From a virus: 11,485 bases of DNA. The translations under genes were made by a program, and so were the position numbers. The stretch lies in the IMG/VR virus record IMGVR_UViG_3300044941_000346. One strand, written 5' to 3'. A model generated the notes under the pieces. That model did not search any database, was not told the origin of the DNA, and worked only from the letters and a program-made list of their open reading frames with translations. Shown here piece by piece: positions 131 to 11,485 of this stretch (its first letter is position 1; each line of letters begins with the position of its first letter).

Positions 131-2602
131 TCACTTCTTGCCCTTCTCCGGCGTTGGCACGAGCGCCGTCACCTTCTCCAGCGCCGAGCCTTGCAGCAGG
201 CCCGCCAGCACCTCAGAGACAGACTTGCCGCCCAGGATCGCCAGCGGAGCCATCGACTCGGCCACGCGCTCGACCAGCGCGCGGTCGCTAAACGCTTGGA
301 GCGCGGCGATAAGATCTGGGCTGATCGCCGCGGCCTTTTTGACCGTGCCGTCGACATTGGCCGCCAGCTCCTCTAAGCGCTGCGCGAGCTTCTGCGCCTC
401 AAACGCCACCTGCGCGTCCTGCGCGGCCTTCTGGCGCGCGATCTCGGCGTCGTGGATCTTGGTTAGCGCTTCTTGCTCGGCGGTCTTGCCCTCCAGCGTG
501 GCCGCCTGCGCGCTGTTGGTGGCCGCGATCTCGGCCAGCCGCACGGCGAGCCGACGCGCGACCTCTTCCTCCCGAAGCGCCAGCTCCTTCTGCGTCGTCT
601 GCGCCAGGGTTTCCATGATCTGGCGCTTCACATCTTCTTGCTGCGATACAAACGCTAAGCGGCGCTGCTCGCTTGCTAGATCCAATGTTTGCTGTACCAC
701 TGAGTGCTGTGCCTGTGTGAGCAACTCCTCAATCTTTGCATCGCCTAGCCGAACTCCTAGCACCTCCACGTCATAAATGCGCATGCCGTTCTCTTCGAAC
801 GTGCGCCCCGGACGCTTGCCACCCGCGTCAGCCTTGCCCAATACCGCGTCGCGGATCACGGCGATGGCGTCACTATAAAAGCTCTGGATACCATGTTGTT
901 TGATAGCGTTGCGCAGTAGAGAGCGCATGTGATCTGTCAAGAACTTGACAAAATTCTCGACATTAAACCACAGGTTGGGGTCGCCCTCGAAGTTGACGCG
1001 GTAGCTCAAGTGGACGTGCACCTGGCACAGATCGCGCGTCTCGGCGTCGACCAGATCGGAGATCTTGTTGTGCAGCGCGCGCAGGTAGACCGTGCGCAGC
1101 AGGTTGGTGTCGGTCTTAGGCGTGCCGGTGGACAGCTCCATCGTCTCCAACGTCTCATCATACTCCAAAAGGCAAGCGTTTGGCCCTACGATCACCTTGC
1201 GCTCGCCCGACTTGCTCACGACCTTGACCGCGTAGCCTGTCCAGACGCCGATCGTGACTGCGCCCTCGTATTTTGTATCGAGCGTGATGGTGCGCGGCGG
1301 ACTAAACTGCTGCTTCCTGTTAAAGTCGTCGCCCGCGAAACCCTCGGCGGCTTCCGAGCGGCGCTGCTGTTTGGCCGCGAGTTCCAAGATGTTTGCCTGG
1401 GCCAGATCGCCGTCCGTGATGACGGCGCCGCCGGGCGCGCCGCGCTGGCTCATCATCTGTTGCAGCCGCGCGTTGTACTCCTGCGCCTCGCGATTGCCCG
1501 GATACCACAGCGCGACCTGCTTGTCCGTCAGCACGCGGCGCACGATGACCTCGCGGCGAGGATCGGGCAGGAACATTGCGGGGCCACGCACCAGGCGGAT
1601 CTGGCCGGTCTGACGGTCCAGGCAATAGCGCCCCTCGCCCGCAGGGATCGCCACCGCGTAGTGGATCTCGCGGTTGCCATACTTGATGAGTGCGTGCTCG
1701 GGTCGAGGGAAGTAGATCATCTGCTCTTTGCCTGTGATGAAGAGCTCTTGGCCGACCTTGAACTCGGCGCCGCCCTCGGTGTAGGGCGCGATGACCTTGA
1801 CATAGATGCCCGATAGCTCGTTGAGCTCGATGGCCTTGAACTTGCGCAGCCCGTCGCGCTCCACGAACGTCTCGGTCGGCTCGGGGAACACGACAGCGGG
1901 TCCCTGAATAAAACGCTTGTTGCCGTCCTCATCCAAGAGGATACAGTACTCTAGGCGCTCAAGCGTGACAGCATCGCGGATGTAGCTGCCTGCGGCGTCG
2001 GGCACGACCTCGATGCCCGTGGGCGGGATGTAGAAGCTGACCTCGGTGCCCTTGATGATGAGCTGCTGGCCGAGCGTAAAGTCGGGGGTCTGCTGGGCTG
2101 CGGGCTGCTGTGCGCCGTCATCGGCGCTGGTCTGGAGCTTGACCACCGCCGCGCTCCAGTGCTTGCGCGCGCTCTCCTCATCGTAGACGCGCACCGTGAG
2201 GTACTGGTTGGAGCGCAGTGTGTGGCCCTTGACCACCTTGACCATCTGGCCCGGCCACAGCGCGAAGGACTGCGGGCCGGGGATGTTGACCTTGTGGCCG
2301 ACGTGGAGCTGCATCAGGTTGTTGACCGTGCCGGTCTTGGGCTGCTCGCCGTCCTTGGCCGGGTTCTTGAGCACCAGATACCAGCCCTCGGGCGCGGTGG
2401 CGAAGACCCGGATCGCTGGCTCCAACATGCAGCGCTCAAAGCGCTTGCTCTTCTCATCGAAGAACACGGGCTGATCCGTGTTGGCCAGGCTCGTCTTGTA
2501 TGGGCCGACATAGACGTTGATGTTGCCCTTGGTCTGATCCGAGATAAACGCATACTCATTGGGGGCCAGGACCAGATCGCGCTCACGGGAGTTATCCGCC
2601 AT
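131..2602 (-). CDS. Major vault protein (MVP)-like protein: N-terminal MVP beta-repeat modules, SPFH/band-7-like shoulder domain, long cap-helix coiled coil, C-terminal cap-ring-like tail
   Basis: The track ORF 131..2611 starts at GTG. I prefer the in-frame ATG at 2602-2600 ([10 protein letters not shown]...), giving 823 aa; the stop is TGA at 133-131. The protein is collinear by eye with mammalian MVP as I recall it: [25 protein letters not shown] vs [35 protein letters not shown] vs [23 protein letters not shown] vs [43 protein letters not shown] vs [51 protein letters not shown] vs [53 protein letters not shown] vs [29 protein letters not shown]. A ~120 aa A/E/Q/R/K-rich helical region follows (roughly nt 290-680), then a tail [19 protein letters not shown] vs [21 protein letters not shown]. 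Confidence 0.9.
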   Translation of the reverse strand: [823 protein letters not shown]

Positions 2603-2829
2603 CACACACACCTTGCAGGGTTAGGGCCTTCTTGTGCTACACGCGCGACGCGTACAACACACTCGCTCACTCGCTGGCCGACACCCTCTCACCCAAGCGG
2701 TGGCGTTGTCAACCATCAACCTTGTGTGTTGTTGAAATGAAGGCCGCGCCGCCAACCCCATGAAAACCGATATGCAGTCGTGTTGCCGCGACGGCTGCAT
2801 CGATCGACGTCACGATTGACATCGCCGCC

Positions 2830-10670: not shown

Positions 10671-10807
10671 CGCTCACTCCACCAAGTCGTAGAACGTGCC
10701 AAACTCGATCTCCAGAGCGCCTTCCACGCCTCGGCGCTGGACGGCTGCTCCAGCGCGCTGCGCAGCTCACCGAACCGCGCGCTGTGATCACTCACCGACT
10801 TCGACAT
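10640..10807 (-). pseudogene. N-terminal fragment of an LRR paralogue (P2), truncated at the AT-rich segment
   Basis: The ATG at 10807-10805 gives MSKSVSDHSARFGELRSALEQPSSAEAWKAL..., which matches the first ~30 residues of the shared N-terminal module. This includes the DNA word ctgcgcagctc (plus strand), also present at 8955-8965 and 9782-9792 and here at 10758-10768. After AWKAL the reading frame loses similarity and stops at 10640 (or at 10675 in the alternative frame). No LRR part follows. Confidence 0.4.
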
Positions 10808-11485
10808 ACCAGTAGTCATCGTCATCGTCGGCGCGGCGCTGCCCGCCGTTACGCACCGTCACGCCCGTCGCGCGGAGCTGGTCGATCAGCTCCTCATCGC
10901 CGATGAAGTTATTGGTGATATCAATCGACTTGAGCTTGCCGATCTTTGGATTCCTCGCTAGCGCACCGGCTCCTGTATTCGACATGATCCCCTTCGACAG
11001 ATCCAGCTCCTCCAGGAAGTCCAGCACAGGCGCATCAAACAGCGCCTCCGCCAGCTCGTCCGCCAGCTCGCTGTTCACCAGCCCCAGCCGCTTGAGCTTG
11101 GGGAACGGATACCGCATCTCCGGATACGCTGTCCCCACCAGCAGCGGCTTCACATCCTCCACCGTCACGTCCGCCCCGTACTCGCTGCTCCCCGTCCAGA
11201 TCTCCAGATGCTGCAGGTTCGGCAGCTTCGCGCTCACGATCTGGCGCACCGTGTGGCCGCTCACGCCGCCTGTCTCCACGATCAGCGTCTCCAGCGTCGG
11301 GTGGCTCAGGCCCGTGAACCCCAGCCCGTTGCCGCCGCGCGCCTTGAAGTGCTTGAGCTTGGGGAAGGCGTTGATCACCGCGCCCAGATCAAACTGCTCG
11401 ATCCACGACACCTCGCTCTCCTCATAGGAGATGTCGCCCACAAACAGCGCCTCCAAGGAGGTGAGCTTGGGCGCCGCCGCCCGCA
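10788..11485 (-). CDS. Leucine-rich-repeat protein P1, 5'-truncated by the window edge; resembles what I recall as the STM4015 family protein
   Basis: The frame stays open to nt 11485 (...RAAAPKLTSLEALFVGDISYEESEVSWI...); the track 'M' at 11456 is an internal TTG. LRR-like units include LKHFKARGGNGL, LETLIVETGGVSG, LQHLEIWTGSSEYG, LKRLGLVNSELADELAEAL, LEELDLSKGIMSNTGAGALA and LKSIDITNNFIGDEEL. The acidic/aromatic tail is RRADDDDDYWYVEVGE; the stop is TGA at 10790-10788. Confidence 0.8.
   Translation of the reverse strand, partial: RAAAPKLTSLEALFVGDISYEESEVSWIEQFDLGAVINAFPKLKHFKARGGNGLGFTGLSHPTLETLIVETGGVSGHTVRQIVSAKLPNLQHLEIWTGSSEYGADVTVEDVKPLLVGTAYPEMRYPFPKLKRLGLVNSELADELAEALFDAPVLDFLEELDLSKGIMSNTGAGALARNPKIGKLKSIDITNNFIGDEELIDQLRATGVTVRNGGQRRADDDDDYWYVEVGE

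Follow-up and report, generated by a model that had tools for sequence, protein, structure and literature searches.

A lineage-specific variant of the STM4015-STM4011 gene cassette and a neighbouring, probably independent, bacterial major vault protein gene

The gene cassette catalogued in NCBIfam under the names STM4011 to STM4015 (NF038073, NF006067, NF038075, NF038074 and NF038076; named after Salmonella Typhimurium LT2 loci) is widespread, horizontally spread and experimentally uncharacterised. Eukaryotic vaults enclose enzymes such as TEP1 and PARP4 (bioRxiv 10.64898/2026.05.01.722283), and bacterial major vault protein (MVP) homologues have been noted in Myxococcales, Cytophagales and Oscillatoriales (bioRxiv 10.1101/872010; PMC3762200). 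Here we analyse 11,485 nucleotides from IMG/VR virus record IMGVR_UViG_3300044941_000346, the whole of which we call the window, where such a cassette lies next to a gene for an MVP homologue. A sequence-only reading of this DNA had proposed that the two form a vault-associated system, which would have linked an enigmatic eukaryote-like cage protein with a bacterial enzyme pathway. We find that the region from 2830 to beyond 11485 is a lineage-specific variant of the STM4015-4014-4013-4012-4011 cassette. Comparison of gene neighbourhoods indicates that the window most probably holds two independent units adjacent by chance, this cassette variant and a stand-alone bacterial MVP gene.

Gene neighbourhoods of MVP and the cassette

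Neighbourhoods were surveyed in both directions. Among 185,579 species, each represented by one genome, 259 genomes have an MVP relative, and we examined the best 80 of these loci together with flanks of up to 10 kb per side; upstream of MVP, 62 loci offer at least 3 kb and 48 at least 9 kb. Their MVPs are 58-67% identical to that of the window, and the hosts include Myxococcota, Bacteroidota (Cytophagales, Microscillaceae), Riflebacteria, Sericytochromatia, Planctomycetota, Chloroflexota and others. When every cassette protein was searched by tblastn, homologues of STM4011, STM4013, STM4014 and STM4015 were found within 10 kb in none of the 80 MVP loci, and the three matches to the HemN-like protein were distant and on the opposite strand. 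For the cassette, more than 305 loci were available, and we took the 80 best, metagenome loci that encode an STM4013 homologue; MVP occurs in none of these 80, of which 41 reach at least 1.5 kb downstream of STM4011. MVP is likewise absent from all 72,556 plasmid records, 26 of which carry the cassette. Additionally, clustering of the open reading frames (ORFs) in the 80 MVP loci revealed no gene family that accompanies MVP across lineages. In none of the lineages examined does the MVP gene (131-2602) have a conserved partner gene, and a promoter-like element of its own precedes it. With no conserved neighbour in 80 loci, gene context is unlikely to reveal the role of bacterial MVP.

The MVP genes closest to that of the window have other surroundings. 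An MVP of 88% identity (P0002) has three genes upstream on the opposite strand, one of them with weak AAA_15/AAA_21 matches in the gene table. On that contig (GCA_041447055.1 / JGI 3300059473) the genes at 2-3859 are a putative ATPase and two unknown genes, divergent and immediately upstream. For an MVP of 84% identity (P0003, five contigs) there is no STM4011 in 250-559 nt of upstream sequence; in the window STM4011 ends 227 nt upstream. The contigs with this 84%-identical MVP, from five samples of the Joint Genome Institute (JGI; L167-L171), all end 245-559 nt upstream of the gene, which suggests strain-variable or repeated sequence at that position. Two MVPs of 69% identity have an MMPL transporter gene (P0006) and a DUF4349 gene (P0005) upstream. 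The slot upstream of MVP seems to be variable.

MVP and cassette do lie side by side in the window contig and in a contig from a second sample (L002). Because L002 is 100% identical to the window, it represents the same organism and not an independent occurrence. The adjacency is a single occurrence, within what chance placement could give. By a rough estimate there are several thousand MVP clusters, a few percent of the genomes in the same phyla have the cassette, and a genome offers several thousand positions; on these figures, an occasional chance adjacency of MVP and cassette is unremarkable.

Gene calls were taken from the JGI contig Ga0484951_003065 (sample 3300044940, 19.5 kb, locus L001), which includes the window. 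All coding units of the window, its long ORFs with protein-family matches, lie on the minus strand. Along the direction of transcription the contig carries the STM4015-like gene, a decayed region, two intact leucine-rich repeat (LRR) genes, the STM4014-HAD fusion, STM4013, STM4012, STM4011, a gap and MVP. Successive cassette genes overlap by 4 nt of start and stop codon (11 nt for STM4014 and STM4013), and MVP is separated from STM4011 by 227 nt. The sequence-only reading had described co-directional units, overlap-chained enzyme and LRR genes and an MVP gene 227 nt further on, and the JGI calls agree. Its count of ten gene-like units needs correction at 9852-10573, which is one frameshifted LRR paralogue and not two genes; the family assignments stand. 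The features are as follows.

10788-11485, minus strand: STM4015-family LRR protein, 5' end cut by the window edge (NF038076; full gene to about 11717 in the contig)
10680-10787, minus strand: FGELRSALEQPSSAEAWKAL, left over from the N-terminal domain of an LRR paralogue and abutting the STM4015 stop codon (three-frame translation)
10500-10690, strand not applicable: AT-rich stretch of about 190 nt without an ORF (sequence, dip in GC content)
9852-10573, minus strand: disrupted third LRR paralogue (three-frame translation)
8989-9855, minus strand: LRR protein of 288 aa, not of the STM4015 family (Pfam LRR_6, LRR_1)
7733-8992, minus strand: LRR protein of 419-422 aa with RNI-type repeats (Pfam LRR families)
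5913-7736, minus strand: STM4014, an ATP-grasp protein (residues 1-380) with a fused HAD phosphatase (390-607) (NF038074, HAD_2)
5096-5923, minus strand: STM4013/SEN3800 hydrolase of the alkaline phosphatase superfamily (NF038075)
3702-5099, minus strand: STM4012, HemN-like radical S-adenosylmethionine (SAM) protein (NF006067, Radical_SAM, HemN_C)
2830-3705, minus strand: STM4011, small radical SAM protein with a Cys-rich C-terminus (NF038073)
2603-2829, minus strand: intergenic gap of 227 nt with a promoter-like element (alignment with MVP relatives, motif positions)
131-2602, minus strand: bacterial MVP homologue of 823 aa (Pfam MVP_shoulder, Vault_3)

In the contig, a BamA/Omp85 gene and a SUI1-family gene (with a sub-threshold YciH match) lie upstream of the STM4015-like gene. 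Beyond MVP, in divergent orientation, are a 73-aa ORF, a DUF72 gene and a Na/Ala symporter gene.

The gap between STM4011 and MVP holds a promoter-like element at 2700-2731, ACACACAAGG-N7-TTGACAACGCCAC, about 110-125 nt before the MVP start. It emerged from alignment; a scan for promoter and terminator consensus sequences found nothing in the 227 nt, including no terminator, and the RNA fold of the gap is no more stable than that of shuffled sequence (z -0.46). The element is common to the 84% MVP relative and, in part, to a 69% relative, both without the cassette, and similarity among the MVP relatives ends just upstream of it, amid different upstream genes. This is as expected if MVP has its own promoter region and the break in synteny falls inside the gap. 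The -35 box of the element is canonical. Across the window, L169 (about 406-440) and L172 (about 3195-3230) the element reads ACACAAAG, about 8 nt, then TTGACA(A/G)CGCCAC, some 110-150 nt upstream of MVP. We rejected the motif as a general feature of bacterial MVP genes; it occurs in close relatives only and was not found in more distant MVP loci. A 37-aa ORF called by JGI at 2709-2822 on the minus strand of the gap overlaps the element, has no family match and is probably spurious.

Family assignments were made with Pfam and NCBIfam models and their curated cut-offs. For the MVP homologue itself two Pfam domains score above them: MVP_shoulder gives 96.6 bits (E 1.3e-27, cut-off 25) and Vault_3 gives 33.5 bits (cut-off 28.8). 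A profile built from the window MVP and 25 bacterial relatives matches 4hl8, 4v60 and human MVP with E 1.2e-23. The alignment is collinear, pairing residues 457-764 with 466-806 (last repeat, shoulder and cap helix) and, more weakly, 215-348 with 275-409 (repeats). The single sequence finds no PDB match at E <= 0.001, and the protein is for this reason a distant relative of eukaryotic MVP. An AlphaFold2 model from an alignment of 26 sequences has a mean predicted local distance difference test score (pLDDT) of 49.8 and is confident only for the shoulder and cap helix. A helix of 135 residues is predicted after the shoulder (625-759, pLDDT 75-90), and the N-terminal residues 1-490 score below 50; of the nine N-terminal beta-sandwich repeats expected in an MVP, the signs are one vault-repeat Pfam match and one weak profile stretch. 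More than 6800 bacterial MVP relatives, counted as clusters, share 58-88% identity with the window MVP, and across phyla the clusters stand at about 60-70%.

Could the window lineage nevertheless have recruited an MVP-like cage, co-transcribed with the cassette, that packages or scaffolds the LRR proteins or the enzymes? The genes are co-directional, the gap is 227 nt with no predicted terminator, the adjacency recurs in the second sample, and eukaryotic vaults do enclose enzymes, TEP1 and PARP4 among them (bioRxiv 10.64898/2026.05.01.722283). However, that second sample is the same organism, the reciprocal surveys gave 0 of 80 and 0 of 80, and plasmids carry the cassette in 26 records and MVP in none. 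The closest MVP relatives, at 88% and 84%, have no cassette upstream, MVP has its upstream element in common with cassette-free relatives, and it is not translationally coupled, unlike every cassette gene. We therefore hold recruitment to be very improbable. The same goes for its more specific form, which we judge a long shot: an MVP gene captured at the 3' end of the cassette and read through from the cassette promoter, whose vault-like particle would enclose or scaffold tail-modified LRR proteins or enzymes. If true, such a capture would for the first time assign a cargo to an MVP of prokaryotes.

Several points count against chance adjacency. The surveys cover 80 MVP loci, the best of 259, and 80 cassette loci, the best of more than 305, and the contigs of the closest cassette relatives (L165 and L166) end before the region downstream of STM4011. 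Given co-directional genes and no terminator, transcription may read through from STM4011 into MVP, and the -10 box of the promoter-like element is not convincing. We nonetheless favour two independent units. The proposal of a vault-associated system had named the lack of recurrent linkage in related genomes as evidence against itself; neither direction of the survey shows such linkage, MVP relatives of 88, 84 and 69% identity lack the cassette, and no plasmid carries MVP. In all probability gene order has tied the two by accident in a single organism, and the locus should not be pursued as a vault system. Its main value lies in this negative result on the vault link and in the tail-ligation lead described below; it is also a clean example of a variant of the widespread STM4011-4015 cassette.

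Families, variation and spread of the cassette

Four of the five cassette proteins are members of their NCBIfam families. STM4011 scores 385.9 bits against NF038073 (cut-off 200) over model positions 2-278 of 278, has the radical SAM motif CNYACDYC and shows a weak match to the Pfam SPASM domain. STM4012 scores 525.3 bits against NF006067 (cut-off 380) over positions 1-425 of 427, with Radical_SAM (9e-17) and HemN_C (4e-9) domains and the cluster motif CEMRCGFC. STM4013 scores 406.5 bits against NF038075 (cut-off 250) over positions 1-260 of 261; its invariant columns are D24-T25, D237-H238 and H250, and its profile weakly matches nucleotide pyrophosphatases and sulfatases. STM4014 scores 333.3 bits against NF038074 (cut-off 175) over residues 8-379, with its ATP-grasp catalytic residues intact. 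The HAD domain fused to it (HAD_2 2.2e-17, residues 393-600) has the motif DLDNT; its best matches, all sub-threshold, are the pyrimidine 5'-nucleotidase YjjG and sugar-phosphate phosphatases. In single-sequence PDB searches the fusion protein was matched in the HAD domain (residues 392-606) and not in the ATP-grasp part, and STM4013 and STM4011 had no match.

The STM4015-like gene is the first gene of the operon and is cut by the window end, its first 77 codons lying outside. The full protein of 309 aa scores 260.4 bits against NF038076 (E 1.6e-77, positions 6-290 of 290), below the cut-off of 275, and the window portion alone scores 228 bits. Aligned end to end, it reads as a divergent family member just under the curated cut-off. 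The families that the sequence-only reading had named (STM4011 to STM4015, HAD and MVP) are all correct by Pfam and NCBIfam, with STM4015 the one just under its threshold. The profile searches it had suggested pass for STM4011, STM4012, STM4013 and STM4014 in NCBIfam and for MVP_shoulder and Vault_3 in Pfam.

The extra LRR proteins are a different matter: against NF038076 the 422-aa protein scores 44.5 bits and the 288-aa protein has no match, and neither is a member. The 288-aa protein shares an N-terminal domain of about 80 aa and is 30% identical to its 422-aa paralogue. The 422-aa family is rare, with only two close relatives among 5.8 billion proteins, and was not found in the 80 other cassette loci. 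Next to these intact genes, the paralogue at 9852-10573 has decayed. Its N-terminal domain lies in one frame (a 148-aa ORF) and is followed by at least two frame changes; the LRR C-terminus is a 92-aa ORF ending EEPYDDDL, the sole ORF called there by JGI. The remnant at 10680-10787, 20 residues long, resembles residues 11-30 of the 422-aa protein. The GC content is 0.55 in 10501-11000 and 63-70% elsewhere in the operon. A search of the whole window against Rfam gave no match, neither a vault-RNA-like nor a riboswitch element.

Two short contigs from other samples share this arrangement. L165 carries an LRR gene (413 aa), STM4014-HAD (613 aa) and STM4013, and L166 carries three LRR paralogues followed by STM4014; in both, orthologues of the 422-aa LRR gene lie directly upstream of STM4014-HAD, and L166 also holds an orthologue of the 288-aa protein (42%). 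Compared with the window, the LRR proteins are 49-51% identical, STM4014-HAD is 68% identical (L165) and STM4013 is 76% identical (L165). Because L165 and L166 share the arrangement with LRR identity below enzyme identity, the LRR array is a conserved but fast-evolving part of the cassette in a small clade (window, L165 and L166). The 410-420-aa LRR paralogues of this clade share the C-terminal tail AA(A/L)(M)DPxDPWW(I/M)A (window 7733-7770; L165 1870-1903; L166 2205-2238 and 3514-3547). This DPxDPWW[IM]A tail is acidic and aromatic like that of STM4015, yet its terminal residue is not Glu.

The variant is set apart by the fusion of HAD to STM4014 and the presence of fast-evolving LRR paralogues, two intact and at least one decayed, between STM4015 and STM4014. 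In Myxococcus xanthus DK1622 the HAD protein is encoded by a separate gene directly upstream of STM4013, and HAD-only matches lie just upstream of STM4013 in four metagenome loci (L132, L137, L144 and L148).

In the 80 surveyed STM4013 loci, partners in canonical order are STM4012 (75 loci), STM4014 (65), STM4011 (56) and STM4015 (55), and ORF clustering of the cassette loci shows that the five core families are the only near-universal ones. An annotated Paenibacillus plasmid (pHD02) carries genes named STM4015, STM4014, STM4013/SEN3800, STM4012 and STM4011 in this order. The order STM4015-4014-4013-4012-4011 given in the sequence-only reading is thus matched in the 80 metagenome loci, on the annotated plasmid and in the window, where the LRR paralogue array interrupts it. 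The cassette is spread over Salmonella, Myxococcus, Streptomyces, Deinococcus, Agrobacterium and Chloroflexi. In the literature on STM4011-4015, on clusters of ATP-grasp, HemN-like and LRR genes and on conflict systems we found no description of the cassette, in line with the earlier statement that no function has been assigned; none is published for the family.

Some loci depart from the common composition. In three fully covered ones (L106, L144 and L148) STM4013-4012-4011 are kept and STM4014 and STM4015 are both absent; the three enzymes can therefore exist without the pair of ligase and LRR protein. L144 and L148 have a HAD gene in place of STM4014 and STM4015. A DUF6745 LRR protein ending ...RVPP.M..C..A.AW.AGF.NPDDY.P..ET is found in 12 of the 80 cassette loci (L109 14478-15829, L110 11166-12492, L175 13095-14201 and nine further), each time adjacent to a protein of about 100 aa (MWRHGDV...HEEH...QREYTP). 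In M. xanthus DK1622 (L174, CP000113.1 3362302-3383156) and Chloroflexia bacterium SDU3-3 (L175) the cassette is split into divergent or separated operons, with neighbours that are either ivWA and KAP-NTPase or VWA_CoxE and DUF5682, plus an AAA_16-TPR STAND-like gene.

The STM4015 tail and candidate functions of the cassette

All STM4015 homologues retrieved have a stretch of acidic residues near the C-terminus and, as their last residues, R-Y-V-A-V-(G/S)-E. We compared the tail of the window protein with those of 56 homologues (loci L086-L164, L174, L175 and L176) and found the terminal Glu in all 57 proteins; position -6 is Tyr in 52 of them, position -7 is Arg in 50 and position -3 is Val in 49, and Asp and Glu make up on average 38% of the 18 residues that precede the motif. 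The window protein ends DDDDDYWYVEVGE-COOH (10788-10830), with the terminal E present. The tail persists where other parts of the protein have changed: it is kept on two WGR-LRR proteins of M. xanthus (RYVAVGE and RYSAVGE), two paralogues of the Chloroflexia genome end WRYVAVSE, and the protein of the Paenibacillus (Firmicute) plasmid ends DDWRYPSLTE. Additionally, STM4014 and STM4015 come and go together: where at least 4 kb is available on both sides of STM4013, both are present in 31 of 34 loci and both are absent from the other three. When the family profile of STM4014 is compared with the PDB, the top four entries belong to LysX (1uc8, 1uc9, 3vpd) and RimK (5zct), weak at E 0.003-0.03, and the matches of STM4014 to the NCBIfam models rimK_fam and LysX_arch are far below cut-off.

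Because STM4015 has an invariant Glu tail, STM4014 has an affinity to LysX and RimK, and the two co-occur, the evidence suggests that the cassette modifies a protein tail. The sequence-only reading had listed a pathway that makes or modifies a phosphorylated small molecule or a protein tail, with the LRR proteins as recognition modules; it is the tail modification that has gained support. Through LysX, LysW (tail motif EDWGE) acquires an amino acid on its terminal Glu, as alpha-tubulin does through tubulin tyrosine ligase. The families, the gene order, the tail and the co-occurrence of STM4014 with STM4015 are observed; a ligation step, its substrate and roles for the other cassette enzymes we infer along the following lines. 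The RimK/LysX-like STM4014 would activate the invariant C-terminal Glu of the STM4015 LRR protein and would then couple an amine or an amino acid to that residue, in the manner of LysX on LysW or RimK on ribosomal protein S6. Either the tethered group or the tail itself may be modified by the two radical SAM enzymes, HemN-like STM4012 and the small SPASM-like STM4011. STM4013, with its Asp-Thr nucleophile pattern, and the HAD domain would handle phosphate, and these phosphoesterases might modify or release the tethered group. This sequence of events, ligation by STM4014 onto the STM4015 terminus and subsequent modification or release by the other enzymes, is our leading but tentative proposal, held at somewhat less than even confidence.

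Four points speak against the ligation proposal. STM4014 resembles LysX and RimK weakly (E 0.003-0.03), we know of no ligated substrate, the tail of the window protein deviates (WYVEVGE), and the last residue of the extra LRR paralogues is Ala, Pro or Leu and not Glu. The enzymes might instead produce a small phosphorylated compound in free form, for example a modified nucleotide, a sugar phosphate or a cofactor, with the LRR protein acting as regulator or scaffold and not as covalent substrate. A HAD protein adjoins the cassette or is fused with it in the window, L132, L137, L144, L148 and M. xanthus, and its best matches are YjjG and sugar-phosphate phosphatases, though sub-threshold. STM4013 has an Asp-Thr nucleophile pattern as in phosphodiesterases and phosphomutases, and three loci keep STM4013-4012-4011 without STM4014 or STM4015. 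However, a small-molecule product leaves unexplained both the invariant C-terminal Glu tail (57 of 57) and its strict co-occurrence with a RimK/LysX-like ligase, and we consider it rather unlikely.

The third possibility, already raised in the sequence-only reading, is a conflict or anti-phage system in which variable LRR proteins would sense an invader and the enzymes would make or destroy a nucleotide-like signal or toxin. The patchy presence across phyla at 58-76% identity, together with the presence on plasmids, points to horizontal transfer; the LRR proteins evolve faster than the enzymes, a pseudogene included; and different LRR families recur beside the enzymes (STM4015, WGR-LRR, DUF6745 and the array of the window). 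The neighbours in M. xanthus and Chloroflexia (KAP NTPase, ivWA, VWA_CoxE and DUF5682) are of the gene types with which nucleoside triphosphate (NTP)-dependent conflict systems have been described (PMC7159879). However, a search of all ten proteins against PADLOC-DB 2.0 gave generic radical SAM similarity only and no specific system match (pVip at E 0.003; PDC-M51A at 4.7e-9 over 100 residues), and the cassette is not described as a defence system in the literature. The flanks in the window contig are housekeeping genes (BamA, the SUI1-family gene with its sub-threshold YciH match, DUF72 and the Na/Ala symporter), and the invariant tail argues for STM4015 as a substrate or carrier rather than a diversifying sensor. 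Patchy spread, recurring LRR families and conflict-type neighbours thus speak for defence and the PADLOC result does not; we regard it as unlikely. With tail ligation as the preferred proposal, the cassette now has a testable lead: ligation onto a protein tail, or chemistry on a carrier protein, with radical SAM and phosphoesterase steps to follow.

Comparison with known systems

The bacterial MVP homologue resembles eukaryotic MVP (rat and human; PDB 4V60 and 4HL8) in length (823 versus 861 aa), in the collinear profile match, in its Pfam MVP_shoulder and Vault_3 domains and in the long helix predicted after the shoulder. Eukaryotic vaults differ in that the window has no vault RNA and no TEP1-like or PARP-like partner nearby, as judged from the contig genes and Rfam.

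The remaining genes share with the NCBIfam STM4011-STM4015 cassette the same families, order, orientation and translational coupling. The CX3CX2C motifs of the radical SAM proteins, the E-x-N motif of the ATP-grasp protein and the metal and nucleophile residues of the alkaline phosphatase superfamily are all intact. The window differs by about 3 kb of extra LRR paralogue genes between STM4015 and STM4014, by the HAD phosphatase fused to STM4014, and by an STM4015 homologue below the cut-off with the tail WYVEVGE instead of RYVAVGE.

Like LysW/LysX, RimK/S6 and tubulin tyrosine ligase, the cassette combines an ATP-grasp protein, here a putative ligase, with an acidic-tailed protein that ends in an invariant Glu (PMC10375531). 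As in the LysW pathway, further enzymes are encoded in one operon. However, the protein that bears the tail is an LRR protein of about 300 aa and not a 54-aa zinc-ribbon or a ribosomal protein, and the tail is RYVAVGE and not EDWGE. The partners are two radical SAM enzymes and phosphoesterases in place of LysZ, LysY, LysJ and LysK, and in sequence STM4014 is marginally similar to LysX and RimK. The locus does not belong to the LysW system, but by analogy it may work in a like manner.

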